From a virus, in the IMG/VR virus record IMGVR_UViG_3300027969_000087, positions 4,040 to 68,039 of that record: 64,000 bases of DNA. One strand, written 5' to 3'. The position numbers were made by a program, and so were the translations under genes. Below, piece after piece: positions 583-51,003 of the stretch (positions within the stretch are counted from its first letter, which is position 1; every line of letters begins with the position of its first letter). Under the pieces are notes generated by a model. It had not been told where the DNA came from and did not search any database. It saw nothing but the letters and a program-made list of their open reading frames with translations.

Positions 583-626
583 CTGTGGTGGCTGGCCGAC
601 ATAAACAACCGGCCAGCCACTCGCAG
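583..626 (+). terminator. GC-rich hairpin (terminator or processing stem)
   Basis: GTGGCTGGCCG 588-598 / CGGCCAGCCAC 610-620 is a perfect 11-bp stem, extendable by CTGTG/CGCAG; no U-tract. Confidence 0.55.
596..608 (+). repeat. CCRACRTAAACAA motif, copy 1
   Basis: CCGACATAAACAA, mostly in the loop of the 588-620 hairpin. Confidence 0.85.
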
Positions 627-650
627 CCTTACCATCATCGGGAAGGAACC

Positions 651-937
651 AGAGGTGAGAGGGATTATGCGATACGCCCTGCATAACATCATAGATTGTA
701 TGAACTGAAGAATGGTCATAGGCTCCAAGGTAAGCAATGTATCACACAGTCAATACGAAAGTATCCGGCTGTCCATGTTACTAGTCTTCGGATGGTGATG
801 AAACTAGTCTGAGGTGTTATTCGTAGAGTAATGTGCGTATTCCTGCGGGACATACAATCATAGGCTTTGCATCTCATCGTTGAAAGGCCAGGCTCATACA
901 ACTAGATACCATGCGTACCATAATCCCTCTCATTTCT
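651..937 (+). ncRNA. candidate large structured non-coding RNA (~290 nt)
   Basis: 19-bp closing helix 651-669/919-937 with two G-U pairs on the + strand, plus several internal stems; no credible ORF. Confidence 0.65.
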
Positions 938-955
938 ACACACTAAGGAGGCAGC

Positions 956-1045
956 ATGCCAAAGAAAGATAAAGAGTTGATCTTGAGTCTATCAAGAGCC
1001 AACTCTAAGCGTAAGACAACTACCCCACCAAAGAAAGGTAAGTAG
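956..1045 (+). CDS. small basic protein (29 aa)
   Basis: AAGGAGG SD; MPKKDKELILSLSRANSKRKTTTPPKKGK; abuts next ATG. Confidence 0.55.
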   Translation: MPKKDKELILSLSRANSKRKTTTPPKKGK

Positions 1046-1046
1046 T

Positions 1047-1541
1047 ATGAAAGAGATACACCCAGGTATCTATGAGGCGTCATTAGATGATGTCAAAGAT
1101 ACCAAGATTGTAGGTAACGAGAGTATGCACGACTATGGGGATGGTGTAGTAGTACAAGGAACTCTATCTTTGCTCAGTGAACTATCAAAGCACCCTGAGT
1201 TTAAATCTAGGGCTGTTGCTATTGCTGTGTTCAATGAGTCTAACAAAATGAGCAAAGTATTCTGGTACACAGGTCAACATATATTCCCCAAAGAGTATTT
1301 AGAGTTGGCTGTTGATGATAACAACATTGTAGTTGTACTTACCAACATGCCAAATCCAACTCTTACAGATGCAGAAAAGTTGACTGAGGTATTCTTACCT
1401 AAGAATGAGAACACCAACCTTGACTACCATGTGCTTGATTACATATGGTCAAACCATACGCATGGTGCATCACTCATGTGTGAAGACTTTAGCTGTTGCC
1501 CTAAAGAGGGTTACGAAATAGAACAGATAGTGAGTATCTAA
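1047..1541 (+). CDS. DUF4192-like protein (N-terminal half only)
   Basis: C-terminal SLMCEDFSCCPKEG resembles the W-S-x-x-C-x-D-x-x-CCP-x-EG motif I recall from actinobacterial DUF4192. Confidence 0.5.
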   Translation: MKEIHPGIYEASLDDVKDTKIVGNESMHDYGDGVVVQGTLSLLSELSKHPEFKSRAVAIAVFNESNKMSKVFWYTGQHIFPKEYLELAVDDNNIVVVLTNMPNPTLTDAEKLTEVFLPKNENTNLDYHVLDYIWSNHTHGASLMCEDFSCCPKEGYEIEQIVSI

Positions 1542-1822
1542 TGGCAAAGAAACTAAAGAAGAAGCAAGTCAAACGACTAATCAATGACTTAGTCAAGATG
1601 ATTGAGTTAGCTGACTTGGCTGAAGTAGAAGACGAAAGCATTGACTTGTCTGATTACCATCGTGGTTCAGCAGCAGGCTTACGTGCTGCACTATCCTTGA
1701 TCAGTGATAAGGATGTTCCAGCATACGCAATCATCAAGCGTGGTGATGCATTCCCATATCGTTTCGTACCATACACAGAGACTGGTGCTGCACCAGAACT
1801 CGCATTGGATTGGTGCGATTAG
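1541..1822 (+). CDS. hypothetical protein
   Basis: 93-aa ORF with TAATG translational coupling. Confidence 0.7.
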   Translation: MAKKLKKKQVKRLINDLVKMIELADLAEVEDESIDLSDYHRGSAAGLRAALSLISDKDVPAYAIIKRGDAFPYRFVPYTETGAAPELALDWCD

Positions 1823-1892
1823 CATTGCACGACGGCGCTGTACTTTATTTAGCTAAGTTGCGGTACTGATACGGTAGCCCTCCGTGTGATAA

Positions 1893-1951
1893 GCCCTGCA
1901 CGACGGAACGTAGACATGACTATTGTCAGTCTTGTTCCCTCCGTGTAGGGT
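1893..1951 (+). other. long imperfect hairpin directly 5' of the tRNA
   Basis: GCCCTGCACG/CGTGTAGGGT, GGAAC/GTTCC, AGAC/GTCT and TGAC-TATT-GTCA are nested. Confidence 0.6.
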
Positions 1952-1953
1952 GA

Positions 1954-2027
1954 GGGGCGTTAGCTCAGTTGGTCAGAGCAGCAGACTCATAATCTGCCAG
2001 TCGTGGGTTCAAGTCCCACACGCCCCA
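1954..2027 (+). tRNA. tRNA with CAT anticodon (Ile2 or elongator Met)
   Basis: Acceptor GGGGCGT/ACGCCCC, D arm AGCTCAGTTGGTCAGAGC, anticodon arm GCAGA-CTCATAA-TCTGC, T arm GTGGG-TTCAAGT-CCCAC; CCA not encoded; paired 1:72 so not an initiator. Confidence 0.95.
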
Positions 2028-2030
2028 CAA

Positions 2031-2053
2031 TGAACACATACTCCGTGTGTTCA
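2031..2053 (+). other. hairpin with ACTCC loop, 3' of the tRNA
   Basis: TGAACACAT-ACTCC-GTGTGTTCA. Confidence 0.6.
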
Positions 2054-2074
2054 GATATAAAAGGAGGTTCATCA

Positions 2075-2368
2075 ATGCGCATTCCAGACGAAATCAAATG
2101 GGATTCATTCGATGACGAAGAAACACCTAATAGCACGTACGTATCACCCTACGATCGAATTAGGGTGTGGTTTGAACAAGGTGGTAGTGAGGGGTACAAC
2201 CCATCATGGGCTAGACTAATGAACCCAGCAGTAGATGCATATGTAACTATGCGAGAAGTGTTGGGTGAGATAGCTGACCAAGGCCAAGAGATAGATGAGT
2301 GGCCAGAAGAATACGATGTAGCCCCCCTATTGCGTAGGGCACGCAGGCTCCAACGTAAACAACAATAG
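2075..2368 (+). CDS. hypothetical protein
   Basis: ORF 2003..2368 trimmed to ATG 2075 behind AAGGAGG (the upstream part overlaps the tRNA). Confidence 0.75.
   Translation: MRIPDEIKWDSFDDEETPNSTYVSPYDRIRVWFEQGGSEGYNPSWARLMNPAVDAYVTMREVLGEIADQGQEIDEWPEEYDVAPLLRRARRLQRKQQ
2350..2362 (+). repeat. CCRACRTAAACAA motif, copy 2
   Basis: CCAACGTAAACAA at the 3' end of the ORF. Confidence 0.85.
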
Positions 2369-2404
2369 CATTCCCTAGGTTAGCTGCGGCTCAACCGACA
2401 GGAT

Positions 2405-2555
2405 AATAACTAACAAGCAAACATGTATGTATTGTTGCGTGGAAGGCCTAGAGAACGTAATAAGTCCACCGAACCAGGCTTCGAAAGCTGTCATAGGGGT
2501 AAGGTGCGTTGAATCCTTCTCCATTTTCCGCTGCATTCGGGAGTAGTTAGTTATT
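2405..2555 (+). ncRNA. candidate structured RNA or cis-regulatory leader
   Basis: Perfect 10-bp closing helix AATAACTAAC/GTTAGTTATT enclosing further stems; followed at once by an intrinsic terminator. Confidence 0.5.
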
Positions 2556-2556
2556 T

Positions 2557-2602
2557 AGTCTCGCTGATGATTGCTGGGAAGCAAGCATAGCGGGACTTTT
2601 TT
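2557..2602 (+). terminator. intrinsic terminator
   Basis: AGTCTCGCT...TTGCT-GGGA-AGCAA...AGCGGGAC followed by TTTTTT. Confidence 0.75.
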
Positions 2603-2627
2603 GTATCTAATCAATCAAGGAGGAAGT

Positions 2628-2846
2628 ATGCAAGACCTCGATCGCACGCCACATGAACCTCCATCAGAGGAAGATATCAATGCTCTGGTGGAATTCTCTG
2701 CGGCGTTTATAGATCAAGCAGATTGCGATGGTAATCTGTTTGATGCAATTACGAACTGGTCTCCTGAACGTACGGTTGTCTATCAACAGGCATTCCTTAT
2801 GTTCAATGCGATCAGCAATCCAGAAGCCTTTGGCTTCCAAGAGTAA
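2628..2846 (+). CDS. hypothetical protein
   Basis: ORF trimmed to ATG 2628 behind AAGGAGG. Confidence 0.7.
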   Translation: MQDLDRTPHEPPSEEDINALVEFSAAFIDQADCDGNLFDAITNWSPERTVVYQQAFLMFNAISNPEAFGFQE

Positions 2847-2909
2847 GACAAAGTAACACCTCACACAAAGAGTGTGAGTCAACCCAGTATAGAGAGAAGG
2901 CAATACATT

Positions 2910-4355
2910 ATGGCAATTTCCGTTTTCACCGAGTCTTATGATTCTACGATGGACAACCACCGTCGACAAGTAATGCTCGTGCCGATTGACGGTACCGTTC
3001 GCGTCTACTCACGCGTCACCGATGGTGCTAAGGGTCCACACAACAAGTGGATCGAGACCAACGTTGACGACTTGGCTAATGAACTTCATGAGAATGAAGT
3101 ACTGACTGCTGAGCCAGTGGGTGTACAAGTTACAGTTGCTGACGAACGTTCTATCCGTGAGCTTGGTTACTCACCAGTTCTCGGTACCAAGTCAGTTGCT
3201 GCACACGGTAAAGCCGAAGCAGTGTCCGACGTAAACAACTCTGCCGCCCGTATCTTTGAACTCTACGAATCTATCATCAACAATGATGATTCATTGGTAG
3301 ATCTTATCATCGATCGTCGCAAGGAGTCGTCAGTGTTCACTCCACCAGTTGCCGCCCAGCCAGCATCTATCGTTGAGACAACGACAATCGCTGCTACTGA
3401 GCAGTTCGAAGCTCCCAAGCTTCAGGTGGCACTTGCATCTGTTCCACGCAAGGAACTTGACGAGCGTTACGTTCACCGCAACGTGTTGGGCGACACAGTC
3501 GAAGACTACAAAGCCTACGACGATGCTCGTGCCAATCACGTCAACGTGTTGATCTATGGTCCTACCGGTCCTGGTAAGACTACATCAATCGAAGCGTGGT
3601 GCGCTTCTCGTGGCCTACGCTTGGCTCAAGTATCAGGTAATGCTGCGCTTGAACCAGGTCACCTGTTCGGTCGTCTTGTACCAGACGGTAAGGGCGGCTT
3701 TGCATGGGTCGACGGTCCTGTCACGGACGTTGTTCGCAACGGCGGTGTTCTTAACCTTGATGAGGTCAACTTCATCTCACCTAAGATCTACACTGTTCTG
3801 TACCCATTGTTGACTAGCCAGCGTATGATTACGCTGCTTGATCATCACGGCGAAGTTATTGAGGCTCATCCAGACCTCACTATCTTTGCTACGATGAATC
3901 CTGATTACATTGGTACTCAGGGTCTCAACCATGCATTCAAGAACCGTTTCGATCTACAGATCCCTTGGGATTACGATGACAAGGTCGAGTCCAAGCTAGT
4001 CAAGTCCAAGAATCTATTGGTACTTGCCAAGCAGTTGCGTGCAGAAGCAGCCAAGGGTCTATACGAGACACCTATCTCAACCAACATGTTGATTGAGTTT
4101 GGTGGTTTCGTTGACCGTCTTGGTTACGAGTTCGCTGTCGAGAACTTCATTGCTCACTTTGCAAATGAAGAGCAGCCATCAGTTCGCCTCGTGTTCCAAA
4201 CTCACGAGCACAATCTGAAGCCTGACTTCGGCATCGAAGTTGTGGTCAAGGAAACAAAGGTTGAAGAGCCTTTCATCCCAGGTCAAGTGATCCCAGATCC
4301 AACACCTACCGCAACCAACAGCACAGTCACTAATCCAGTGATTGTCAATATCTAA
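2910..4355 (+). CDS. MoxR/CbbQ/CobS-type AAA+ ATPase
   Basis: Walker A GPTGPGKT, Walker B LNLDEVN, DGPV and ATMNP motifs, NRF arginine finger; start likely ATG 2910. Confidence 0.9.
   Translation: MAISVFTESYDSTMDNHRRQVMLVPIDGTVRVYSRVTDGAKGPHNKWIETNVDDLANELHENEVLTAEPVGVQVTVADERSIRELGYSPVLGTKSVAAHGKAEAVSDVNNSAARIFELYESIINNDDSLVDLIIDRRKESSVFTPPVAAQPASIVETTTIAATEQFEAPKLQVALASVPRKELDERYVHRNVLGDTVEDYKAYDDARANHVNVLIYGPTGPGKTTSIEAWCASRGLRLAQVSGNAALEPGHLFGRLVPDGKGGFAWVDGPVTDVVRNGGVLNLDEVNFISPKIYTVLYPLLTSQRMITLLDHHGEVIEAHPDLTIFATMNPDYIGTQGLNHAFKNRFDLQIPWDYDDKVESKLVKSKNLLVLAKQLRAEAAKGLYETPISTNMLIEFGGFVDRLGYEFAVENFIAHFANEEQPSVRLVFQTHEHNLKPDFGIEVVVKETKVEEPFIPGQVIPDPTPTATNSTVTNPVIVNI
3226..3238 (+). repeat. 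CCRACRTAAACAA motif, copy 3 (intragenic)
   Basis: CCGACGTAAACAA, encodes SDVN. Confidence 0.85.
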
Positions 4356-4391
4356 CTACATCCGTAGTTAGTAAAGAGAGGAGGCAATACC

Positions 4392-6341
4392 GTGTATCAA
4401 GATGAGCTAACTAGTCAATCTTATTACGGTTCATCAGTTCAGACTGATGAAGATGCACAAGAGCTAGCTGTTCGCTTAGGCTCGTTGTGCCGCGTGTATG
4501 AACAAACTGACCGTGTGCTTACTGGTGATCCAGTACAAGTTCACGTAGTCAATGGTGGTCCTGCACCGGCATGGTCTGACGGCTCAGACATTTACATCAA
4601 CAAGGAAGAGATCGAACAGTTTGATCTTGACGAGTTGGTGCAGATCAATGGCCTCAACTATCACGAGCTAGCCCACCATCTGTATACTCCCCGCAAGGGT
4701 ACTACACTGATGCAATGGGTCATGGAGCAGACAGCTATTGACCCGCTGTACATGATGGCAGTCAATGTTCTAGAAGATCAGCGCATTGAGACATTGTTCA
4801 CCGCACGTTATCCCGCTATCGTACCCTATCTAACCAAGACAGTGGTTCGCTGGTTGGCTGACAGCCCAGATAAAGTATCGTCGAACTACCTAGCAATTCG
4901 TGGTCGTCAATACCTACCTCTGGACTTACGTATTGGATTCCGTGACATGTTCTTCATGCCGGAATTAATACCAGTCATTGCAGATATCGTAGATGAGTAT
5001 CGTACGCTGCACTTTCCTAAGCAATACGCAGATGCACAACGGTTGATTCAGCGCTTCAAGGAGGAAGTGTTGGATAAACTAGAGCTGCCACCGGAGCAAG
5101 CACCAGACGGTGGTCCATCAGGCTGTGGTAAGCGCAACCCTGTTAGTAAGGGTAGGCCAGAAGCGGGCAAGGCTCAAGAGCGTGACTCAGAGCGTGCTAA
5201 GGGACAAGGTAATCCTGAACCGGAATACACACCTAAGCCACCTGAAGATAAGCAGCCAAGCAATGACAAGGGTGACAGTGACGACGAGTCCAACGTAAAC
5301 AACGTCGGTCGTGGTCCTGGCTCTCCTGGTAATGATGGTTCATACGTTCCACCAACTACAGTTGATGAAGCACTAGCCCTGCGTGAGACCGAACAGACCA
5401 CAAGTCCTGCCGGTGATGCGCATGCTCAAAGCTTGGGCGGTATCCCAGATAACATCTTGGATATCATACGTGACATCGAGCAGTCTATTTACAACCGCAA
5501 GGACGTACAGGCTGACGTCAAGACCAAGCAACGTGTCATCATTGGCGGTGACGGTAAGCATGACGATGGCATCAGGCGTGGCAAATACAGTACAGTAGCT
5601 GTCCCAAATGAAGTACTCGTTGTTGCTCGTCGCTTTGCCCGTGAGCTTGAGAAGCTCAAGCAAGACTGTGAGCCCAACTGGGAGCGTGAGCAATCAGCTG
5701 GGCGTCTCAACGTACAGCGCGTGATATCAGGGGCTGACCTTGATAAAGTGTTCGATCGTTGGGACGATGGAGTGGATGGCACAGACATTGAGACTGTCAT
5801 GTTAGTTGACAGGTCCGGGTCTATGGGCAGCAACAATAACGACATGCGTGCTTCTGAAGCATCATGGGTTATCAAGCGCTCAATGGAGCAGATCAAAGCT
5901 CCAGTGACTATCTATGCGTTTGACGGTCAAGCTGAGCTTGTTGCGTCTCGTGATGACAAGGTTGACAAGCTCAACCTACCATTCATCTATGGCAGTGGTG
6001 GTACTGATCCAAAGACTGCGCTTGTTGCTACCGAACGTCTGTTCAGGTCCAGCAAGCACAAGACCAAGATCATGTTCCTCGTCACTGACGGTGAGTTTAG
6101 TCACTACGAGAATGACGACATTGTCAAGCGTCTCAATGCTATGGGAGTTGTTACAGTTATGATTCTCATTGCTGACCCGTACAGCTTGCAATCAATCACT
6201 GATCGGTATGCTCAATACCATGAGGGTGAGGACATGTGGCACGAGTGCTCTATCCACGGCTCCGTGACCACCGCTGCTGACCTTATTCCGTTCGCTAAGC
6301 AGGTTGTGACAAGCACAATCAAGAAAGCACTCAATCGATAA
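4392..6341 (+). CDS. VWA-domain partner of the MoxR ATPase (CobT-like) with N-terminal HExxH region
   Basis: HELAH and LEDQRIE near the N terminus, acidic/Pro-rich linker, MIDAS DRSGSM, GGT, TDG. Confidence 0.88.
   Translation: MYQDELTSQSYYGSSVQTDEDAQELAVRLGSLCRVYEQTDRVLTGDPVQVHVVNGGPAPAWSDGSDIYINKEEIEQFDLDELVQINGLNYHELAHHLYTPRKGTTLMQWVMEQTAIDPLYMMAVNVLEDQRIETLFTARYPAIVPYLTKTVVRWLADSPDKVSSNYLAIRGRQYLPLDLRIGFRDMFFMPELIPVIADIVDEYRTLHFPKQYADAQRLIQRFKEEVLDKLELPPEQAPDGGPSGCGKRNPVSKGRPEAGKAQERDSERAKGQGNPEPEYTPKPPEDKQPSNDKGDSDDESNVNNVGRGPGSPGNDGSYVPPTTVDEALALRETEQTTSPAGDAHAQSLGGIPDNILDIIRDIEQSIYNRKDVQADVKTKQRVIIGGDGKHDDGIRRGKYSTVAVPNEVLVVARRFARELEKLKQDCEPNWEREQSAGRLNVQRVISGADLDKVFDRWDDGVDGTDIETVMLVDRSGSMGSNNNDMRASEASWVIKRSMEQIKAPVTIYAFDGQAELVASRDDKVDKLNLPFIYGSGGTDPKTALVATERLFRSSKHKTKIMFLVTDGEFSHYENDDIVKRLNAMGVVTVMILIADPYSLQSITDRYAQYHEGEDMWHECSIHGSVTTAADLIPFAKQVVTSTIKKALNR
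5290..5302 (+). repeat. CCRACRTAAACAA motif, copy 4 (intragenic)
   Basis: CCAACGTAAACAA, encodes SNVN in the disordered linker. Confidence 0.85.
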
Positions 6342-6347
6342 TACAAA

Positions 6348-6381
6348 TGTCGGGCGGGCGTGTAACAGCGCCCGTCCAACA
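6348..6381 (+). terminator. GC-rich hairpin after the VWA gene
   Basis: GGGCGGGCG-TGTAACAG-CGCCCGTCC. Confidence 0.5.
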
Positions 6382-6388
6382 TAAACAA
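6376..6388 (+). repeat. CCRACRTAAACAA motif, copy 5
   Basis: CCAACATAAACAA just before the SD of the 6404 gene. Confidence 0.85.
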
Positions 6389-6403
6389 GGACAAGGAGAC
6401 AAT

Positions 6404-7111
6404 ATGAATCGCACAGGCGTTAGAGGCTATGACACAGCCAACGCATGGTTGCAAGGTGGTAGGTCTAAGTCAAAAAACGAGCGCAGTCTATATGAGACTG
6501 GTGTTCGTCTAATACGAGACTCACCTACAGAAATTAGCGTAATACTTAAGCATTGGGGTAATAGTAGGTACACTCATCTAGTTACTTACCGTTCTGATGG
6601 CACTACAGTTATACACCCAGGTTGGAAGTGGCAGAGTATACGCAGGATTATTACCGAGTATGTTCCTAACCTTACAATGGTAATTCGTAAGGGACAACTA
6701 GTAATAAGCTTACCGACTGATGGTATGACACCGCCTAAAATTAGTAAGTGTCGTACATGTAGCGGTATAGGTACTAAGCCAAAGGAATGCTATGGTCCAG
6801 GGTATCGTTGCTGGGATGATGACTGCGAGCAGTTTGCAGCGACAAAACCAATGAGGGAGAAAGCCTGGCGCCTTCCATGGGGCGTGCCTGAAAGGAATGA
6901 GCTAGAGCAACTTATTCGCCTAGAAGAACACAAGCATGCTACTTGTAAGCATGGCTCTACTGTGGCGCATAAACTCTATAACGATCGCTATGACTGCTTC
7001 AGGTGTCGTACAACAGGCAAGGTTGACTACGGTAGTAAGCAACGTGGTCGTGTATGGGACAATCGATCACCCATTGGTATCGATGCCAATGGGCATTACA
7101 TAGAAGTATAA
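6404..7111 (+). CDS. hypothetical protein with DnaJ-like CxxCxGxG zinc motifs
   Basis: CRTCSGIG and CFRCRTTG; start at ATG 6404 behind AAGGAG. Confidence 0.7.
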   Translation: MNRTGVRGYDTANAWLQGGRSKSKNERSLYETGVRLIRDSPTEISVILKHWGNSRYTHLVTYRSDGTTVIHPGWKWQSIRRIITEYVPNLTMVIRKGQLVISLPTDGMTPPKISKCRTCSGIGTKPKECYGPGYRCWDDDCEQFAATKPMREKAWRLPWGVPERNELEQLIRLEEHKHATCKHGSTVAHKLYNDRYDCFRCRTTGKVDYGSKQRGRVWDNRSPIGIDANGHYIEV

Positions 7112-7120
7112 GGAGGAACT

Positions 7121-7315
7121 ATGTACGTTATTACAGATCTAAATAGCGACTCAGCAATTGGGCCGTTCGAAATGTACGAAGATGCCATTAGCTTTATTGC
7201 TAAGGTAGACGAAATGTCATACTTAAATGAATCAGGTCTAGAAGTTCTAGACGTAAGTACCCCAGAAGATTGGCTCCTTGAAAACATGGACTCAATTCTT
7301 ATGGCTAACTGCTAG
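7121..7315 (+). CDS. small acidic hypothetical protein
   Basis: AAGGAGG SD, 64 aa. Confidence 0.7.
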   Translation: MYVITDLNSDSAIGPFEMYEDAISFIAKVDEMSYLNESGLEVLDVSTPEDWLLENMDSILMANC

Positions 7316-7323
7316 GAGGAATA

Positions 7324-7806
7324 ATGGATACAGAAGAGAACGTACGCATACATTCGGATATTGATTACCGGCGTGAGATTTATCAGTTGGTATACAATAC
7401 CGTTACTAGTAAGTCATTGGATCTAAATGTTGATATGGTAGGTGACTACCTAAGGATTGCAAGGATCAGGGACGCTGTTCTGCACACACTATTTAGTAAC
7501 CCTGAAGATAGGCAGCTATTCTTTGACTGGTTCGATGACAACAAGAGTGAACTCTCAAAGTTAAATGAAGAATACAAGACATACTATCTATGCTTAATGG
7601 TTGGTGCCTTATTTCTTGATGGCAAATCTGAAATTGCATACAACACAGGTAAGTTAGCTATTGCGTATGGAGAGGCTAGTGGAGTTTCCTACAATCTTGC
7701 TAAGTTAATAGTTGGCGCTATTGACCAGATGGGTAGGGAAACTGCTCTTGAACTATTTACTAAATCAATGAAAGCACTAACACTGGATAGTACACTCAGT
7801 AACTAA
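7324..7806 (+). CDS. DUF4192-like protein (C-terminal helical half)
   Basis: LRIARIRDAVL ... DGKSEIA ... YNLAKLI pattern resembles the DUF4192 C-terminal region. Confidence 0.5.
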   Translation: MDTEENVRIHSDIDYRREIYQLVYNTVTSKSLDLNVDMVGDYLRIARIRDAVLHTLFSNPEDRQLFFDWFDDNKSELSKLNEEYKTYYLCLMVGALFLDGKSEIAYNTGKLAIAYGEASGVSYNLAKLIVGAIDQMGRETALELFTKSMKALTLDSTLSN

Positions 7807-7836
7807 TAAAGACCCATAACTAAATATAGGAGGAGC

Positions 7837-8025
7837 ATGGTAAAGTACGTTCAAATCACCGCTACTTTAGCAATCAGCAATGAGCGTGGTATCGATAATC
7901 TTCGAGACCCACGCTTGTGGAACATCACACTGATTGATGAACAAAACGGTGTACTTATATTTGACGTTGACCTTACGCTCGAAGGCGAGAAATGCTGGGA
8001 GCCTAAGATCATCATGTGGGAATAA
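7837..8025 (+). CDS. hypothetical protein
   Basis: AGGAGGAG SD, 62 aa. Confidence 0.7.
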   Translation: MVKYVQITATLAISNERGIDNLRDPRLWNITLIDEQNGVLIFDVDLTLEGEKCWEPKIIMWE

Positions 8026-8029
8026 AGAT

Positions 8030-8068
8030 AAGAGGCTCTACACTAAAGCCATTAGTGTAGAGCCTCTT
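8030..8068 (+). terminator. perfect 17-bp hairpin (terminator-like)
   Basis: AAGAGGCTCTACACTAA-AGCCA-TTAGTGTAGAGCCTCTT. Confidence 0.7.
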
Positions 8069-8183
8069 GTTAGTTACGGGAATAACTATTCACCTTGGAG
8101 GGGTAATACATTAAGTCTAACTGACATAGTTTATGACTCTCACAAGACAACAGAAATACCTTATCGTTTGGCAAACAGGTTGC

Positions 8184-8196
8184 CCAACGTAAACAA
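8184..8196 (+). repeat. CCRACRTAAACAA motif, copy 6
   Basis: CCAACGTAAACAA overlaps the 3' arm of the 8165-8189 hairpin and abuts an SD. Confidence 0.85.
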
Positions 8197-8206
8197 AGGA
8201 GGCACA

Positions 8207-8323
8207 ATGGAATGTGGTACCGGATGTGGAAATATCATCACAGATGATAACGTATGCACCCTTGAGTTAGAAGAGAACAATGTATCTATCTGCAACTACT
8301 GTTGCTCATGCGAGGAGAAATAA
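8207..8323 (+). CDS. small Cys-rich (zinc-finger-like) protein
   Basis: AAAGGAGG SD; MECGTGCG...ICNYCCSCEEK. Confidence 0.65.
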   Translation: MECGTGCGNIITDDNVCTLELEENNVSICNYCCSCEEK

Positions 8324-8532
8324 TGGAACATGAAGAAACTTGGTGGGACATCTTCACAGATGTGAACCACATCATGGCTGAACTTGGCTGGACTATTGTC
8401 CAGGACGTAATCATCATAGGATTACTCTACAACGTAGTGTTCAAACGAATTATCGTGCCAAAGCTTAAGCATCAATTACATCAAGAAATAGACAAAGAGC
8501 ATGGAATTGTCCATGATGAGGAGGATAACTAA
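8323..8532 (+). CDS. small single-TM membrane protein
   Basis: Hydrophobic stretch WTIVQDVIIIGLLYNVVF; GAGGAG SD. Confidence 0.7.
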   Translation: MEHEETWWDIFTDVNHIMAELGWTIVQDVIIIGLLYNVVFKRIIVPKLKHQLHQEIDKEHGIVHDEEDN

Positions 8533-8693
8533 TGCAATACGAAATGACACAAATAATTAGCTACCTAGTAACAGCTGATTCAGCTGACGAAGCTCTGGAC
8601 AAGTGGAACAACCACCCTAAGACAGCTGTAATCCAATGGCAAGACGGTGACGTTGAGCTATTTGATGAACAAGTAGAGCTCAATGGCTACTAA
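8532..8693 (+). CDS. hypothetical protein (53 aa)
   Basis: TAATG coupling, GAGGAGG SD; MQYEMTQIISYLVTADSADEALDKW... Confidence 0.6.
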   Translation: MQYEMTQIISYLVTADSADEALDKWNNHPKTAVIQWQDGDVELFDEQVELNGY

Positions 8694-8832
8694 ACGTAAG
8701 GAAGTCGTATACAAGACTGGCTGGTGTGGTGGTGTTGAAGTTGACAAGGCCCACGACCTATGCCCGTATGAGACTACGCAAAAAGGTCTTGTATGCGGTT
8801 GCGACTGCCACGAAAATACTGTGGTAGATTAG
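8683..8832 (+). CDS. small metal-binding protein (49 aa)
   Basis: WC...HDLC...CGCDCH motif. Confidence 0.6.
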   Translation: MATKRKEVVYKTGWCGGVEVDKAHDLCPYETTQKGLVCGCDCHENTVVD

Positions 8833-8839
8833 GAGGGTG

Positions 8840-8876
8840 TTGGCTAGGGGCTTTGAACTCCTTTCACCCTAGCCAA
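8840..8876 (+). other. hairpin with CTCCT (anti-SD-like) apical loop, 5' of tRNA-Arg
   Basis: TTGGCTAGGG..TGAA-CTCCT-TTCA-CCCTAGCCAA. Confidence 0.65.
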
Positions 8877-8881
8877 TGCCA

Positions 8882-8954
8882 GCCCTCGTAGCTCAGGGGA
8901 TAGAGCAGCAGGTTTCTACCCTGCGTGCCGCTGGTTCGAATCCAGCCGAGGGTA
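8882..8954 (+). tRNA. tRNA-Arg(TCT)
   Basis: Acceptor GCCCTCG/CGAGGGT, D arm AGCTCAGGGGATAGAGC, anticodon arm GCAGG-TTTCTAC-CCTGC, T arm GCTGG-TTCGAAT-CCAGC; CCA not encoded. Confidence 0.95.
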
Positions 8955-8956
8955 CT

Positions 8957-8981
8957 AATAGCCGGGGTGTTCCCGGCTATT
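8957..8981 (+). other. hairpin 3' of tRNA-Arg
   Basis: AATAGCCGGG-GTGTT-CCCGGCTATT. Confidence 0.6.
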
Positions 8982-8998
8982 GTCATATAGGAGGAACA

Positions 8999-9151
8999 AT
9001 GAATGAGAAATGGTTAGATGAGTCTATCTCATGGAGTGCAGAACATCTAGTGGGTATGCATTACTTAGCAGATCAAGATGACTGGGAAGAGTTCAAAGAC
9101 GCTGTGCAAGAGTTTGTACAGCATTACCTGGAGGAACTAAACTATGAATAA
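8999..9151 (+). CDS. small acidic hypothetical protein
   Basis: ORF 8876..9151 trimmed to ATG 8999 behind AGGAGG. Confidence 0.65.
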   Translation: MNEKWLDESISWSAEHLVGMHYLADQDDWEEFKDAVQEFVQHYLEELNYE

Positions 9152-9443
9152 ACGTAATAGAAAGAAAAAGATGATCTTTGCTCTAGCAATGATCTCTCCT
9201 GATAAAGAGATCCGCCGGGTCGTTCGTGAGTTAGAACGAGCCGGCTTTGTTGTTACTAAGAAAGGTAACAAGCATGTCAAGATCTTTAACCCTGTTACAG
9301 GGCAACAAGCATCTATTCCGTCCACACCAGCTGGCAATGGTCGTCAGCGTCAAAATATGTACATGACCCTACGTCAGATAGGCTTTGATGTATCAGAGCT
9401 AAAGGGTACCAACCAAAAGAAAAAGGAGCAAGCAAATGGGTAA
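9144..9443 (+). CDS. HicA-like mRNA interferase-fold protein
   Basis: LERAGFVVTKKGNKHVKIFNP...IPSTP...LRQIG matches the HicA dsRBD-like pattern with the catalytic His. Confidence 0.75.
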   Translation: MNKRNRKKKMIFALAMISPDKEIRRVVRELERAGFVVTKKGNKHVKIFNPVTGQQASIPSTPAGNGRQRQNMYMTLRQIGFDVSELKGTNQKKKEQANG

Positions 9444-9639
9444 CGCCGGAGAAATAATCAGCGAGGTAATTAGAGCATCTAATGTTTTAGTGACTAGTGT
9501 GTTAGACCTAATTATGAAGGGCGCAGTAGAAGCGTCAGTAACTGATGAGCATGGAGAACGTCAGATCTCTATCCTTAAGCTTGTCAGCATCATAGATAGT
9601 GCCAAAGAAATTATTAATGGGGAGAACAATAATGGTTAA
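9436..9639 (+). CDS. hypothetical protein
   Basis: AAGGAG SD, 67 aa. Confidence 0.65.
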   Translation: MGNAGEIISEVIRASNVLVTSVLDLIMKGAVEASVTDEHGERQISILKLVSIIDSAKEIINGENNNG

Positions 9640-10156
9640 TACTTTTCTACCTGTAGCTGACTATAAAGAGTCAGCTAAAATATTAGACTACCGTCGTTTA
9701 GGCAAACAGCGTGTAGAAGTAATACAACTACTAAAAGCTAACTTTGGCCTAACCAAAGGTTGGGTCAACCATCCCGCAGCTAAGATGTGGCGTGGTCACG
9801 AAGTAGCTCTTGGCCTATACGGTATAGCAATGTGTGAAGAGTGGATCGATCGTGGATTCAAAGATTCATGTACTGCAAAGATAAAAGCACTTGTAGATGA
9901 GCATACTAACGGCAGGGTTGTCATGCCTCATTGGTATGCTAACGAGTACTTCCATAGAACACATAGATCTAATCTATTGCGCAAAGATCCTGTGTTCTAT
10001 GGCAGGTACAACTGGGACGTGTCTGATGACCTTGATTACATATGGCCTGAGCCTGGGCCAATACGACTAGTCAATCGTAATTTAGATAAAGTACTACACG
10101 TTCAAGACTTAGATGAACACACCTTGGAGGTACTACGTGATGAATCGCTTATATAG
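9632..10156 (+). CDS. MSMEG_6728 family / pyrimidine-dimer DNA glycosylase-like protein
   Basis: NTFLP...LDYRRLGKQRVE...GWVNHPAAKMWRG...HRSNLLRKDP...YIWP. Confidence 0.85.
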   Translation: MVNTFLPVADYKESAKILDYRRLGKQRVEVIQLLKANFGLTKGWVNHPAAKMWRGHEVALGLYGIAMCEEWIDRGFKDSCTAKIKALVDEHTNGRVVMPHWYANEYFHRTHRSNLLRKDPVFYGRYNWDVSDDLDYIWPEPGPIRLVNRNLDKVLHVQDLDEHTLEVLRDESLI

Positions 10157-10244
10157 CCTAATCTATCGATGGGCTATGGGATGTAAGAAAAGCGAAGATG
10201 GTCTTCGCACTGGAACGTACTACGTACAAGAATGGGAATAACTA

Positions 10245-10562
10245 ATGGCTAACATATCAATACACGCACTGGCAACTCTAATTATAGATACCCCTGATGG
10301 TGATACACCTACCATGGGCCATATACGTGAGTTTGTTGAGAAGGCAAATCAATTCAATCTACCCGATGACTTAGAGCTGCTAGATTGTGTGCTAGCTGTT
10401 GAGATCCCCATCAAGGATCTAGACGTCATCTCTTGTGGTCAGCATGTAGGTGAAGAACCAACAGACATTGTGCTTTACACACACGAGTGTGACCATGAAG
10501 TGTCTGATCCTTTGTGGTTTGAAGCCTCAGACAACATTGTTAAAGAAATGAACCCTTCCTAA
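10245..10562 (+). CDS. hypothetical protein
   Basis: 105-aa ORF, last gene of the + strand block. Confidence 0.7.
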   Translation: MANISIHALATLIIDTPDGDTPTMGHIREFVEKANQFNLPDDLELLDCVLAVEIPIKDLDVISCGQHVGEEPTDIVLYTHECDHEVSDPLWFEASDNIVKEMNPS

Positions 10563-10566
10563 TAAC

Positions 10567-10603
10567 AATAGCCCCCGGCCTTATGGTCGGGGGCTATTTG
10601 TTT
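10567..10603. terminator. terminator at the convergent junction (probably bidirectional)
   Basis: AATAGCCCCCGGCC-TTAT-GGTCGGGGGCTATT with A/T-rich flanks, between opposing gene blocks. Confidence 0.8.
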
Positions 10604-10610
10604 ATGTTGG
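10598..10610 (-). repeat. CCRACRTAAACAA motif, copy 7 (inverted)
   Basis: TTGTTTATGTTGG on + equals CCAACATAAACAA on -. Confidence 0.85.
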
Positions 10611-12710: not shown

Positions 12711-12763
12711 ATTTTACTGAGCCGTTTCATGCTCAGTTAACACTGTTATCAGGGTCTGATAAC

Positions 12764-14236
12764 TTATTCTTCTATTTGCTGAACAATGATCTCTGTTACA
12801 GCTTCTTCTGTCAAACCGTCGTTTGGAAGGTTCTTCAGGATAGCAGCTTTATCGCCAAAAAGGTTACTTAAAACGCCTCCGCCAGTCTGACGTTCTACCG
12901 TCATTCTCACAAACTCATTATTAGACTCAAGCTTCTTTAATTGTTCGACTATCTTGAATAGTCTATCAATTTCCTGACCGGTATTTGGGTCAGGGTATCC
13001 GCCGTTTAATTCCTCAGAAAACCTTGCAAATGCTACACGAGCGCCTTGCATCTCAATGATTGCGTTGAGTAGGGCACGGAGCTGATCCTTGGTCTTTACC
13101 TCTACTGGAAGACTAAATGCACAGGCACTCTGAGCCTTAAAAGCAGGGCAGTTTGCAGACACAAAACAGGTGTCACATTGCCTCAAAGATTGGTGGTTTG
13201 AGGAGAGCAATGGAGCGTCCCTGAGCACGTCTCTACCGGACGCATCTTTGTCCACTACCGTGCTATGGGTGACCCCAAATACGGGCAGTGTGGTGCGTTC
13301 TGAGGCCTCTCTAGGGGCCAATTCTTTCCGCACCTCTATAGCACTATTATCAGGGTTAAGACCCCCTGTTTCCGCGTTACCGGGGTCATCCATATCATCA
13401 CTGTTATCAGATAACAGCGGGCGATTCTTATCCAATGATTTCTCCAATTGTAAATATGACCAAATTGCGAGGCGAGTTACCTCATTTGGATCATCAGCCA
13501 TGATCTTATCAAAGTCCAAACCGGCAGTTTCAATGATCCTTTTATACCGTGGTCGGGCTTGGTCTTTCATCTTCTTGGGATAACGCACTAACTTTGTGCC
13601 GTCCCATACGATAGTCTCGCCTCTCATCATAGGAGATAGCCATGACAGGGTGCTAGCGGTGGTAAAAGGTACTTGGCGAAGGTTATCTGGCTTTGCGCAG
13701 GCAATTCCATGCAAGTCAAAGTCGTACTGGCTCTTTAGGGCTCTAACTCTAGAAGCTAGGGTTAGCTCTGTCTCTATAGCATTACCAGGGATAGCTACAT
13801 TATCGTAGGTCTTAGCCAGGTTTACCAACTCTGCTGGACCTTGTTCAGGGTCCCACATAGGCCAGAATAGGCCCTCTGCGGTATAGTTCCAAAACTCCTC
13901 GCGCTGTTTTTGTACCCAGTTAGCTCCTAGAGAAGCATGGGTAAACTCTGTAGCCCCAGCAATTCGCTCTTCATTGAGAGTAATCCACTCTTGGTACTCC
14001 TCGTAATAGCCTTCGAGCTCCATTACGGATAGGTTAGACTTAGCTGCGCTAGAGATACCGCTGTCAATAAAGATGCTGACGCTAGGGTCATACCTCTCTG
14101 ATAATAGATAATCCTTGGTCTTAGGTAGACCACGGCGCTTTAGGGCCCAGTAGTTAATGCCGATAGCTGTTACGCCAGCATTAGTTAGTAGGTTTCTATG
14201 GGACGGTACTTCTCCGCCCAAAAATACAAGGGTCAT
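12764..14236 (-). CDS. TGT/DpdA-like TIM-barrel protein fused to a Cys4 plus helical C-terminal domain
   Basis: IFIDSG, WPMW, LHGIA, ASTLSW recall transglycosylase-like barrels; acidic linker; CDTC-x4-C-x8-C. Confidence 0.5.
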   Translation of the reverse strand: MTLVFLGGEVPSHRNLLTNAGVTAIGINYWALKRRGLPKTKDYLLSERYDPSVSIFIDSGISSAAKSNLSVMELEGYYEEYQEWITLNEERIAGATEFTHASLGANWVQKQREEFWNYTAEGLFWPMWDPEQGPAELVNLAKTYDNVAIPGNAIETELTLASRVRALKSQYDFDLHGIACAKPDNLRQVPFTTASTLSWLSPMMRGETIVWDGTKLVRYPKKMKDQARPRYKRIIETAGLDFDKIMADDPNEVTRLAIWSYLQLEKSLDKNRPLLSDNSDDMDDPGNAETGGLNPDNSAIEVRKELAPREASERTTLPVFGVTHSTVVDKDASGRDVLRDAPLLSSNHQSLRQCDTCFVSANCPAFKAQSACAFSLPVEVKTKDQLRALLNAIIEMQGARVAFARFSEELNGGYPDPNTGQEIDRLFKIVEQLKKLESNNEFVRMTVERQTGGGVLSNLFGDKAAILKNLPNDGLTEEAVTEIIVQQIEE

Positions 14237-48855: not shown

Positions 48856-49391
48856 TACATTCCCGTTAGTAGTAGTGGGTTGATAGTTTGTAGTGCTTGA
48901 AGATTTGTAATATCTGCTTTAATTGTATTGTAGTTAGTGTCATTAACTACTACTACTAAATTAGTTCCCACAGATGGGATACCCGCAGAGCTTACGTTAA
49001 AACCTAGGTTAGTGGTACCTGTAACATATGTTTCAAAAAGATTTGCCGTGTTTCCTGTTACGTTTTTTAGCGCAAGAGTAACAGTGCCTGTAGCTGCAGT
49101 TATAGTGCTAGCCGCGTCTGTTCTTACATACGGGGTGCCTGAAACCCCTAGTCTTAATCCACGCTCAATATTACTAAGTCTTGCATGTACTGAAGTAAAA
49201 GCTGAAGAGCTGTTTGAAAAAGCAGTGCTAGTTTGATCTTGATAGAGGATGCCGGAACCCAAAGTAGATTCGATAGCTATAATTTCGTCGTATGCCGAAT
49301 TAACGTCATTAGCCGCTATAGTATTTACAAGGTCTGTTCTAGGTACTAGCTGTGCAATGCCAACTACACTGCCTGGATATACAGCGGCCAT
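48855..49391 (-). CDS. minor tail/structural protein
   Basis: MAAVYP..DLVNTIAANDVN..EIIAIE..LG; position in the tail cluster. Confidence 0.6.
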   Translation of the reverse strand: MAAVYPGSVVGIAQLVPRTDLVNTIAANDVNSAYDEIIAIESTLGSGILYQDQTSTAFSNSSSAFTSVHARLSNIERGLRLGVSGTPYVRTDAASTITAATGTVTLALKNVTGNTANLFETYVTGTTNLGFNVSSAGIPSVGTNLVVVVNDTNYNTIKADITNLQALQTINPLLLTGM

Positions 49392-49464
49392 CTATTAATC
49401 TCCATAATGCTCTGGGATCCCTCTTTATATACTCTCTGATTATAGAGAATAAATCTTTTTAAAA

Positions 49465-51003
49465 CTATACAAATCCGCCGGTTGGCGTAATCGTTAGGTT
49501 AGCTGCAGTAAGTGACGCAATTTGACCTGCGTTAAGTTGTAGATCCGATACCGCAGTACCTCCGGAGGAAGTAGTTGATAATCTAGTAAAGGTTACATTT
49601 AGTACGCCTGGAACAGCCATAAGAAGAGCAATAATAGCTGACTGAGTTATGTTTGCCCCAAAACCGTATGAGTTATAAGAAAATAGTCCTATATACTCAT
49701 CTAGAAGTGCTTTAGCTACATTAATCTTAACATCTCGCTGTTTATATGCTGAATCAACAGTTATATTTAATGCGAGATATATCGGTACATAGGTGGGTGG
49801 TGAAACAGTTACTGTTGTAGTAGCGGGACACCTAGAGGTTAATAACTCAAGTACTTGAGCTTGTATGCTGTACCATGAAGCAGTTGGTGTACCTGAAGAG
49901 ATACCTGGTGTAGCAGTAAGGTCATTAAACGGCTGTACATATACAGTTACTGAGTTATACACAGATGACTCCGCATTTGCGCGGCCAACTCCATACAAAC
50001 CAACGGCAAGATTTTTATAGTCATCTATTGTAACAGCTCTATTTCTAGCGGTAAGTGTGCTTTGTAAAGCTACCCGTAAAGAAGCTAAATTCTCACCGTC
50101 AGTACCTCCAAATGCATCTGAGGCATTTGTAACATTAAGTCCGTAATTTGACGAAATATTATATCCTTGCCCTGGTATATAAGTTGGATACGCAGACACT
50201 GAGCTTGAAGGAACGTTTCCAAATACACCTACACTTGTTTTGTATACAGCTGATACGGTTCCAGATGGAATAGCCCCACATACCCCATCCCCAAAAATAA
50301 TGGTAATAGTCCCGTTCTCATCCATCTTTGTAGTGTAAACAGTATTATCAGGGCCATACTCAATAATAGTATCTACATAACTCCACTTAACTAGAGCATT
50401 TGCCTCTCCAACATAAACCTGTACAGAATCTCCAATAACACCTGAGTTAGGTATTGAAAACTCTTGATAAGCATATGTAGATGCTTCTCCTAAAGAAACT
50501 GGAAGTACATATCCATATGCATCGACACCATCCCCGTTTGTCTTACCTTCAACAGCCGATAAGGTTACGCTTGCTCCAGCAGCAAGTTGCGGGTAATCCG
50601 TAATAGTTTCAAAGTAAGCTGTAGTGTAGCTGCCTGTAGTAATTGGTGCTTCAACCTGTGTTCCTGCTGGTATATCAATCGCATTAGCAGAAGTATTAGT
50701 AAACGTTAGGTAAACATATGCTGGTGAGGGACCAGAAACACGGTAACCAAAAAGCTCAGCAAAGTTTAAAAGTGTACTTTTTTGAGTAGCTGTCTGAACA
50801 GCTGCCTCATTAAGTGCTCTATCAATATAGTAAGACAAAAGATCTCCGGCATATGCAAATGCTTCTACCAGGGCAAGACCAAAATCTGAACTACTCGAAG
50901 TTGAGTTAGGGTTCCAGTTTGGAACTCTTTGTTGCACTACTTTAATAAGTTCGTCTCTTAAAGAGTCATAATCACGAGAGGTGTAGTCTACTTGGTAGGC
51001 CAT
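49465..51003 (-). CDS. baseplate wedge J / T4 gp6-like protein
   Basis: DYTSRDYDS, DFGLALVEAFAY.GD.LSYYID, FGDG..GAIP, GGTDGE, RAVT..DY. Confidence 0.92.
   Translation of the reverse strand: MAYQVDYTSRDYDSLRDELIKVVQQRVPNWNPNSTSSSSDFGLALVEAFAYAGDLLSYYIDRALNEAAVQTATQKSTLLNFAELFGYRVSGPSPAYVYLTFTNTSANAIDIPAGTQVEAPITTGSYTTAYFETITDYPQLAAGASVTLSAVEGKTNGDGVDAYGYVLPVSLGEASTYAYQEFSIPNSGVIGDSVQVYVGEANALVKWSYVDTIIEYGPDNTVYTTKMDENGTITIIFGDGVCGAIPSGTVSAVYKTSVGVFGNVPSSSVSAYPTYIPGQGYNISSNYGLNVTNASDAFGGTDGENLASLRVALQSTLTARNRAVTIDDYKNLAVGLYGVGRANAESSVYNSVTVYVQPFNDLTATPGISSGTPTASWYSIQAQVLELLTSRCPATTTVTVSPPTYVPIYLALNITVDSAYKQRDVKINVAKALLDEYIGLFSYNSYGFGANITQSAIIALLMAVPGVLNVTFTRLSTTSSGGTAVSDLQLNAGQIASLTAANLTITPTGGFV

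Follow-up and report, generated by a model that had tools for sequence, protein, structure and literature searches.

The stoperators of Cluster A mycobacteriophages, recognized by repressors such as L5 gp71 and that of TipsytheTRex, are described in the relevant sections of one report as asymmetric 13-mers that are dispersed over the genome, oriented with transcription and inactive when inverted (PMC9283540). Here, we analyze an asymmetric 13-letter motif, CCRACRTAAACAA, that recurs in IMG/VR virus record IMGVR_UViG_3300027969_000087, more precisely in a stretch of 64,000 nucleotides (the window) that corresponds to bases 4040-68039 of this 68,039-base record, which is estimated to be 70% complete; positions are those of the window unless stated otherwise. 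A previous sequence-only reading of the window had drawn attention to the motif, had likened it to L5 stoperators and had suggested that it belongs to an undescribed cis-acting system of the early region. Our results make it very probable that the motif is a real control signal, i.e., a transcription-coupled and phage-specific cis element, and a stoperator-like function is the one that we tentatively put first.

Other phage elements of comparable size have to be considered as well. The promoters of T4- and T7-type phages are conserved, co-oriented short elements situated in the gene-variable early small-gene region, often just past a hairpin. The nut/boxA sites of lambda and of rrn operons are linear RNA words of about 12 nt that are read co-transcriptionally and occur more than once per operon, the boxA consensus being T-rich; we know of no nut/boxA system with a copy number or spacing like that of the motif studied here. 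The start-associated sequences (SAS) and extended start-associated sequences (ESAS) of Cluster K mycobacteriophages contain the ribosome-binding core AGGAG and lie 3-7 bp from the start codon, according to the passages of PMC3203893 that deal with them. The nick consensuses of phages T5, tf and phiKMV are short and strand-specific, are repeated about 4-14 times and vary between lineages in a way suggestive of co-evolution with the enzyme; those of tf are all located on the top strand, although tf has convergent arms (PMC3517423, sections on nick sites).

Results

Occurrence and Orientation of the Motif

CCRACRTAAACAA matches the window exactly seven times, six times on the plus strand (596, 2350, 3226, 5290, 6376 and 8184) and once on the minus strand (10598-10610), and the recount is identical to that of the sequence-only reading. 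The chance level of about 0.01 matches given there was reproduced by dinucleotide shuffles (0.01), none of 100 shuffles reaching seven. An eighth exact copy was found on the plus strand at bases 3200-3212 of the record, 839 bases 5' of the window, and the reversed-pattern control remained at zero (0/0). Since open reading frames (ORFs) are on the plus strand up to 10562 and on the minus strand from 10622 onwards, every exact copy is co-oriented with its own arm, as had been claimed: the seven plus copies of the record all lie in the plus arm, and the 60-nt gap between the convergent arms houses the sole exact minus copy. By contrast, the single partial match that had been found elsewhere by eye, at 50408, is not the only one, as a mismatch-tolerant scan gave four such matches: a 12/13 near-copy on the minus strand (CCGACGCAAACAA, 58438-58450), which is co-oriented and lies within the gene for a 997-aa M23/SLT protein of the minus arm, and 11/13 matches at 725, 23259 and 50408, the last of these being on the plus strand and opposed to transcription.

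A search with the AAA_5 ATPase encoded in the plus arm retrieved 38 related IMG/VR loci, 35 at 52-71% identity and three at about 32%. The exact pattern CCRACRTAAACAA was present among them only in L010, with four plus copies and one minus copy, and k-mer counts showed that CCAACACAAACAA takes its place in the majority of relatives, where the gene strand has up to 11 copies and the opposite strand one. When the relaxed core C[AG]AC[AG][CT]AAAC was counted, 35 of the 38 loci were positive (223 plus versus 39 minus copies), the three distant loci having none. In five complete records of about 100 kb, CAACACAAAC occurred 18, 18, 16, 18 and 16 times and its reversed control 1, 0, 1, 0 and 0 times, so that the genomes of relatives, which the sequence-only reading had named as a check, bear out the motif (16-18 copies versus 0-1). 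The family consensus is C-CAACACAAAC-A-A, a compact asymmetric word of 12-13 bp conserved down to about 52% protein identity at roughly 8 to 18 copies per genome; CCRACRTAAACAA is its form in the studied phage (G000) and in L010. A logo of the plus copies among 233 unique instances holds information only at positions -1 to +12, and hence there is no partner element; in the compositional profile a weak C-rich (40-53%) and T-poor (5-8%) tract follows at +14 to +19. In the ATPase tree, G000, L009, L010 and L036 form one clade (support 100/97), within which T at position 7 is found only in G000 and L010. A lineage-wide change from C to T at this position is what would be expected if the sites co-evolve with their reader.

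Agreement with the strand of the local ORFs was observed for 18 of 18 copies in G001, 16 of 16 in G005, 15 of 18 in G002 and eight of nine in G000, i.e., for 49 of 52 copies in the three relatives, which extends the claimed orientation with local transcription beyond the window. The complete records carry about 10 copies in the ATPase arm, in a single orientation and at intervals of 0.6-2.7 kb, and another 6-8 copies spread over the remaining ~85 kb, mostly in the opposite orientation and at an about ten-fold lower density. In G005, eight copies are on the plus and eight on the minus strand, and the strand flips with the transcription arms. The motif tracks transcription, or a process parallel to transcription, and not one DNA strand. 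The description of the copies as confined to the early region therefore applies to the exact copies of the incomplete record, but not to the family, given the 6-8 further co-oriented copies in the other arm of complete relatives and the 12/13 near-copy at 58438.

In bacterial genomes the 12-mer was scarce. It gave 50 matches in 201 genomes from the order of a metagenome-assembled genome titled Nanopelagicales (at most three per genome; reversed control about 24) and 49 matches in 401 genomes of the phylum (at most four per genome; control about 43), that is, 0-4 copies per genome and near the level of the reversed control. As far as these sampled actinobacterial genomes are concerned, the element looks phage-specific. 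A 14-mer scan of IMG/VR yielded, among the matches listed, mostly single chance ones. An unrelated 94-kb IMG/VR contig (L113) contains four copies of CCAACACAAACAAA within about 800 bases (13310-14127).

A different co-oriented 8-mer, CTAAAGAA, was noticed in the distant clade that lacks the 13-mer (L043, L042 and L045, the latter corresponding to 70-90 kb of G006). It occurs 19 times on the plus and three times on the minus strand in L043, and in G006 it is clustered on both sides of the convergent junction, matching the gene strand on each side. This 8-mer could be a diverged counterpart of the 13-mer or could reflect coding bias. Two other candidate repeats, TGTTATCA and CATCATAG, showed no consistent pattern.

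Spacing of the Copies

Along the gene-variable small-gene arm one copy is packed per ~1.1-1.6 kb. In the 24 loci with at least five copies, the mean coefficient of variation (CV) of the spacing was 0.32 (minimum 502, median 1334 and maximum 2983 nt), and uniform placement was rejected at p<0.05 in 16 of the 24, many of these loci being related and hence not independent. In four genomes the CV amounted to 0.23-0.30, as compared to 0.81-0.98 for random subsets of gene starts (p <=0.003). Some lineages have only 2-4 copies, and an interval of about 3.06 kb is found in L036. These data show a maximum-gap rule in one arm.

Selection and Relocation Inside the AAA_5 and VWA Genes

Two copies of the window lie deep inside genes, in segments that had been described as flexible and that are indeed variable linkers: CCGACGTAAACAA at 3226-3238 (plus) within the AAA_5 (CobS/MoxR-like) gene at 2874-4355, where it reads SDVN, and CCAACGTAAACAA at 5290-5302 (plus) within the VWA gene at 4392-6341, where it reads SNVN in a central low-complexity linker. 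Extraction of coding sequences from the related loci, during which two loci were dropped, recovered 32 ATPase genes, 27 of which carry the motif at one alignment column in a linker rich in substitutions and indels. There, PTQT is encoded in 24 of 29 distinct sequences and their third codon positions are 96-100% invariant, as compared to a mean of 0.62 for 89 conserved four-fold columns, with no more than three other columns attaining 0.9; the synonymous-site test that the sequence-only reading had suggested for the intragenic copies thus came out in its favor. The usual site is lost from the AAA_5 gene of G000, whose copy at 3226 differs in alignment column and frame from that of most relatives and is situated 50 codons upstream. 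In L035 the motif is found elsewhere in this gene, which is devoid of it in L009, L010 and L036. In the VWA gene the motif is located at no fewer than five linker columns in two frames, at a C-terminal site, or is absent. Over all intragenic copies the three frames are used 51, 39 and 5 times. The motif is not a peptide signal, because synonymous positions are invariant, several frames are used and the site relocates. As judged from these alignments, it is under nucleotide-level selection and was gained time and again at places where the protein can accommodate it, and copies have changed position between lineages. The earlier proposal of an undescribed cis-acting element is supported by this selection together with the orientation, and the element indeed appears undescribed.

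Position Relative to Genes, Hairpins and Terminators

Of the remaining copies of the window, CCGACATAAACAA (596-608, plus) begins 23 nt past the stop of the ORF at 103-573 and extends with its last 10 nt into the loop (599-609) of a hairpin with 16 pairs, the stem of which is 583-598/610-626. CCAACGTAAACAA recurs at 2350-2362 (plus), about 320 nt downstream of tRNA-Met (1954-2028) and, as noted earlier, at a gene's 3' end, which is correct for the position within the ORF at 2003-2368, with the amendment that this ORF overlaps the tRNA. CCAACATAAACAA (6376-6388, plus) is intergenic, follows the VWA stop, adjoins the preceding hairpin (6352-6377) and ends 15 nt ahead of the ATG at 6404, with GGAG in between. 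At 8184-8196 (plus), CCAACGTAAACAA is directly followed by AGGAGG and the ATG at 8207; a perfect 17-pair hairpin (8030-8068) lies in the intergenic DNA upstream of this copy. The minus copy, again CCAACATAAACAA (10598-10610), is located between the nrdJ stop (10622) and a G+C-rich 14-pair bidirectional terminator hairpin (10567-10598), where the two arms converge, in agreement with its previous description; the T-rich tail of this hairpin for the plus direction is the reverse complement of the motif. The layout is kept in nearly every relative as nrdJ stop, 5-10 nt, motif, 1-4 nt, G+C-rich hairpin and T-rich tail, the hairpin sequence being variable, and several genomes repeat the order of stop, motif and terminator after the gene of a 353-aa protein near the head of the other arm. 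Conserved copies are found 1-15 nt upstream of strong terminators, and some others just past a start codon.

Of 140 non-redundant copies, 29.3% are followed at a distance of 16-45 nt by a start codon with a preceding Shine-Dalgarno (SD) sequence, as compared to 9.6% of 1400 control positions. The copies prefer intergenic DNA, although about half of them are intragenic. Contact with a hairpin was recovered for the four copies for which it had been claimed (596, 2350, 6376 and 10598), and 26% of copies are directly preceded by a stable hairpin, as compared to 8.6% of controls. Nevertheless, the view of the hairpins as part of the element was not upheld: hairpins were present in 73% of the arm intergenic regions with the motif and in 65% of those without it, a comparison confounded by length, and since motif-free regions are nearly as rich in hairpins the upstream hairpin can be regarded as largely a by-product of intergenic placement. 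Hairpins were not enriched downstream (8.6% vs 8.6%), the predicted accessibility of the motif was no better than with shuffled flanks (unpaired 0.73 vs 0.75, p 0.16), and neither display in a hairpin loop (27% vs 37% in shuffles) nor a closing flanking stem was enriched, with the copy at 596 and that at 8031 in G005 as two striking single cases of loop or flanking-stem display. All 38 single changes at motif positions 1-11 are C>T or A>G.

The motif-free beginning of the ATPase arm comprises a divergent intergenic region and the first gene, followed by a terminator-like hairpin and ~350-550 nt of structured non-coding DNA. Hairpin-rich stretches without any ORF of at least 45 codons on the arm strand were seen here, at 573-1047 of the window, 84420-83880 of G001 and 49190-49940 of G002; they lie between the first gene of the arm and the first motif copy, are conserved between G001 and G002, and are possible locations of promoters, of an origin or of a non-coding RNA.

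Two further roles were considered and rejected. Similarity breakpoints between genomes fall within 15 nt of the motif in 3.2% of cases versus 1.7%, a weak enrichment that a conserved island would yield anyway, which argues against a function as mosaic boundary. A guide-RNA was dismissed as well: the sense strand of each early arm contains the reverse complement of the motif at the junction and nowhere else, and therefore no separate antisense RNA gene was found.

RNA Polymerase and Candidate Readers

Single-subunit RNA polymerase (PF00940) was not matched in five records, but the control genomes also gave no match; the motif DxDGD was absent from proteins of at least 300 aa. Sigma70_r2 was not matched either, with a control that was positive in 10 genomes, although a very divergent sigma factor is possible. 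As neither a phage polymerase nor a phage sigma factor was found, the phage evidently relies on the host RNA polymerase.

The sequence-only reading had listed WhiB and SpoVS proteins among the candidate readers. SpoVS and two or three whiB genes are encoded in every genome examined, including the motif-free G006, so that their presence does not track the motif and gives no support to a role as readers. A scan of bacterial genomes with a single WhiB protein found nothing, and a scan with a WhiB alignment returned 80 actinobacterial loci. Two proteins of the small-gene arm were modeled. The 235-aa protein encoded at 6404-7111 was found in 21 further loci and has invariant Cys and His residues and two CxxCxGxG-like motifs; its model (predicted local distance difference test, pLDDT, 83) had no match in the PDB using Foldseek. 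The 99-aa protein encoded at 9144-9443 is HicA-like (Pfam HicA, E 4e-4) with an invariant His, and its model (pLDDT 72) shows an alpha-beta-beta-beta-alpha order with weak HicA matches (TM 0.54-0.64), none of them significant in the PDB. The search for the gene of the latter was negative in 14 of the 38 loci.

Gene Content of the Window and of Its Relatives

The AAA_5 and VWA genes (2874-6341, plus strand) are the sole arm genes common to all 38 related loci, and each of the two has an internal motif copy that relocates. The content of the arm is otherwise highly variable: besides these two, none of its 32 ORFs is shared by all loci, and for the majority of the small ORFs of G000 no locus contains a homolog. 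Pfam recognized the ATPase and the VWA protein in the plus arm and a class II ribonucleotide reductase (nrdJ; RNR_Alpha 7.6e-30, RNR-II_ins_dom 7.8e-14), a family A DNA polymerase, a tail sheath and the M23/SLT protein in the minus arm; PHROGs returned no result for eight of ten proteins. The window also encodes an SNF2 helicase, a DnaG-type primase, a DnaB-like helicase, RecA, WhiB and SpoVS. Two tRNAs, the only Rfam matches in the window, lie co-oriented in the small-gene arm, namely tRNA-Met (CAT, 1954-2028) and tRNA-Arg (TCT, 8882-8955), and are overlapped by the mechanically called ORFs 2003-2368 and 8876-9151. Near the end of this arm, a pyrimidine-dimer DNA glycosylase is encoded at 9599-10156 (Pyr_excise, 6.3e-19). 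Palindromes on TGTTATCAG / CTGATAACA were observed at 12744-12763 and 13402-13416, one of them ~90-110 nt upstream of the nrdJ start and one within the next gene, and similar palindromes adjoin nrdJ in G001, G002 and G005; they may function as an operator of genes for nucleotide metabolism.

Among cultured phages, the ATPase is most similar to proteins of Gordonia and Brevibacterium phages, with 44-46% identity over part of the protein, and megablast of a phage collection gave no match. DNA of the phage is present in freshwater and lake metagenome runs, and the family is best described as ~100-kb, freshwater, actinophage-like myoviruses. Integrases of the tyrosine (PF00589) and serine (PF00239) type were absent from five related records, four of which are complete, and the phages appear to be lytic.

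Discussion

We tentatively propose that the motif is a stoperator-like polar site at which a putative phage-encoded, sequence-specific protein would bind and act polarly on the transcribing host RNA polymerase, a reading that is given first place because actinophage stoperators offer a close formal precedent. The logic would be that of a stoperator, yet the phage would be lytic and the reader unrelated. After synthesis of the factor, elongation would be stopped or gated throughout the arm, which would result in temporal shut-off or insulation, and sites every ~1-3 kb, two long genes included, would catch polymerases wherever they are already located. The same factor would also reinforce the ends of transcription units, i.e., that of nrdJ and, in relatives, that of the gene for the 353-aa protein.

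Several observations weigh against this proposal. As the phages look lytic, there is presumably no lysogenic silencing to perform. About half of the copies are intragenic, unlike the mainly intergenic stoperators, and none was observed at the head of the ATPase arm, although an operator covering the first promoter should lie there. A tblastn search with L5 gp71 against four genomes and the 38 loci found no homolog (best E 3.8); SpoVS and WhiB occur irrespective of the motif; and the folded 235-aa and 99-aa arm proteins show no clear DNA-binding fold, searches for them in the deepest clade with the motif being negative. Moreover, one roadblock near the promoter would suffice, so that the regular spacing is not required by the model, and the computed evidence does not separate a DNA-level from an RNA-level reading.

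An element acting at the RNA level, i.e., a single-stranded site in the transcript for a phage RNA-binding protein or endoribonuclease, is possible and nearly as likely as the stoperator-like site. The long arm transcript might be cut or marked into ~1-kb units, the stability of the mRNA might be controlled, or an antitermination factor might be reloaded. The strict sense orientation in both arms would be explained in this way, as would copies in 5' and 3' untranslated regions, since every junction copy is contained in that at the 3' end of nrdJ, likewise past the 353-aa gene, and others lie between an upstream hairpin and the SD sequence of the next gene. The motif is predicted to be mostly unpaired (0.73), but shuffled flanks give the same accessibility, loop display and flanking stems are not enriched, and the lack of downstream hairpin enrichment leaves no boxB-like partner. 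The restriction of the 38 single changes to C>T and A>G and the fit of a maximum-gap spacing to a distance-decaying effect are in line with a site in RNA. The HicA-like arm gene, which is conserved and resembles a family with an RNA-binding fold, also speaks for this reading, despite the weak structural matches and its apparent lack in 14 of the 38 loci. For antitermination in particular, a site right ahead of a terminator makes little sense, and we know of no linear 13-nt RNA site that is repeated in this manner.

A related possibility, which we regard as no better than tentative, is distance-limited polar reloading, in which a putative phage factor would read the word co-transcriptionally, its target being either nascent RNA or the non-template strand. 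The word would have to recur within ~1-3 kb in order to keep or stop the host RNA polymerase over the early arm with its rapid gene exchange, and the inverted copy would mark the arm boundary, a cis-logic unrelated to L5 gp71, lambda N/nut and RfaH/ops. The 8-mer CTAAAGAA may be the sequence-diverged counterpart of such a system in the sister clade.

It is rather unlikely that the motif is a phage-specific delayed-early or middle promoter to which a putative phage factor would redirect the host RNA polymerase, as in T4-type phages, whose small early genes are each preceded by a stem-loop and a promoter. Co-orientation would be expected of a promoter, and the three-fold enrichment 16-45 nt upstream of SD-preceded starts and the conservation of the motif ahead of unrelated, rapidly exchanged small genes (only two of 32 arm ORFs being common to all loci) point in the same direction; the first arm gene and a terminator-like hairpin precede the first copy, which is compatible with a cascade. 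However, there is neither a -35/-10 partner nor a T-rich melting element, the 6-9 nt downstream being C-rich and T-poor and the composition upstream being that of the background, and the searches for PF00940 (with its silent control), Sigma70_r2 and DxDGD were negative. Promoters would also not account for the repeated gain of mid-gene copies in the linkers of long genes, for a spacing more regular than that of random gene starts, for copies just past a start codon, or for the conserved copies 1-15 nt upstream of strong terminators, which would fire straight into them.

Less probable still is a polar DNA site that is independent of transcription, such as a phage nick site, a guide sequence like Chi or the FtsK-orienting polar sequences (KOPS), or a lagging-strand priming site. 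The placement is largely independent of gene boundaries, coding DNA tolerates the copies as they sit in linkers, and the maximum-gap pattern of ~1-1.6 kb is near the size of Okazaki fragments; the phage has its own DnaG-type primase, DnaB, RecA and PolA, and the distant clade possesses another co-oriented 8-mer in the same region. Chi sites are, however, far shorter than 13 nt, and the sampled actinobacterial genomes are not enriched in the motif, as would be the case for Chi or KOPS. Neither priming nor end protection is consistent with the ~10-fold lower density over the other ~85 kb, and the start points of terminal repeats vary among records, which leaves no fixed entering end. The phage nick consensuses covered by the sections of PMC3517423 mentioned above are 9-19 nt long and strand-specific, which would suit the motif, but the tf sites stay on one strand in spite of convergent arms, whereas the motif switches strand with the arms. 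A length of 13 nt also far exceeds the primase sites described in the relevant part of PMC8718748.

The notion that the motif has no function, being a chance repeat, a coding by-product due to a peptide that recurs, or what is left of a small mobile repeat, can practically be discarded: nothing but the similar peptides encoded by some intragenic copies (PTQT, NTN) speaks for it, and against it stand seven observed versus 0.01 expected matches, the use of at least two reading frames and of non-coding DNA, invariant synonymous positions, the lack of a conserved flank such as a mobile element leaves, and breakpoints that are only weakly enriched at the motif (3.2% vs 1.7% within 15 nt).

The phages of this family, which infect freshwater bacteria, are abundant and uncultured. 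The motif provides a sharply defined handle on their gene control. Its regular spacing and its repeated re-invention in linkers imply an effect of limited distance along DNA or RNA, for which stoperators, SAS and phage promoters offer no described parallel. The reader, once found, would represent either a novel polar-acting family of regulators of actinobacterial RNA polymerase or a sequence-specific RNA-processing system of a new kind. As a practical marker, the motif can be used to recognize and orient genomes of this family in metagenomes.

With respect to known systems, a full-text literature search for the motif strings, supplementary tables being outside its reach, gave only unrelated papers among those listed, and the words "motif" and "promoter" are absent from the COBRA paper on whiB actinophages. 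The motif is dissimilar to boxA with its T-rich consensus and differs from nut sites in that no boxB-like hairpin is enriched downstream (8.6% vs 8.6%). With T4/T7-type promoters and with promoter-plus-stem-loop cassettes it shares the character of a co-oriented element in a gene-variable small-gene region, but it has no partner element and no melting-prone segment, no polymerase or sigma gene was found in the searches described, and copies lie directly ahead of terminators. Unlike Chi and KOPS, which have 5-8 nt and a preferred orientation in the host chromosome, the 12-mer is not over-represented in the 201 and 401 sampled actinobacterial genomes. It resembles the nick sites of T5, tf and phiKMV, as far as these are set out in the nick-site sections of PMC3517423, in being a short, strand-specific, repeated consensus with lineage-specific variants; since both strands are used (eight plus and eight minus copies in G005) and the strand flips with the arms, the motif does not behave as a nick site of the tf or T5 type. 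The likeness to the SAS of Cluster K is closer: as characterized in the SAS passages of PMC3203893, these are asymmetric, 13 bp long, in one orientation, restricted to the non-structural half, placed ahead of unrelated genes, absent from host genomes and in about half of the cases accompanied by an upstream inverted repeat. Identity with them was excluded by the missing SD core and the different distance to the start codon, as the motif is devoid of G, precedes a nearby start by 16-45 nt, and is often found mid-gene or ahead of a terminator.

The Cluster A stoperators are the closest of the systems compared. In that system the sites occupy promoters and short intergenic spaces all over the genome, are bound by a monomeric repressor, block elongation in one orientation once it has bound, and serve the silencing of lysogens of temperate phages. 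The formal part of the likeness drawn by the sequence-only reading is well founded, i.e., both are asymmetric 13-mers with many dispersed, transcription-oriented copies in phages that use the host RNA polymerase (PMC9283540, stoperator sections). Membership in the L5 system, by contrast, is ruled out by the absence of a gp71 homolog (best E 3.8) and of an integrase from the genomes searched, and the sequence of the motif is unrelated. Further differences concern the concentration of the copies in one arm at a regular spacing of ~1.1-1.6 kb, their being intragenic in about half of the cases although copies are enriched in intergenic DNA, and the arm-head promoter, over which no copy was seen. 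Regular spacing, relocation within gene linkers and a conserved copy at the arm junction are features that we have not seen described for any of these systems, among which, judging from the comparison, the element would appear to work most like a stoperator.

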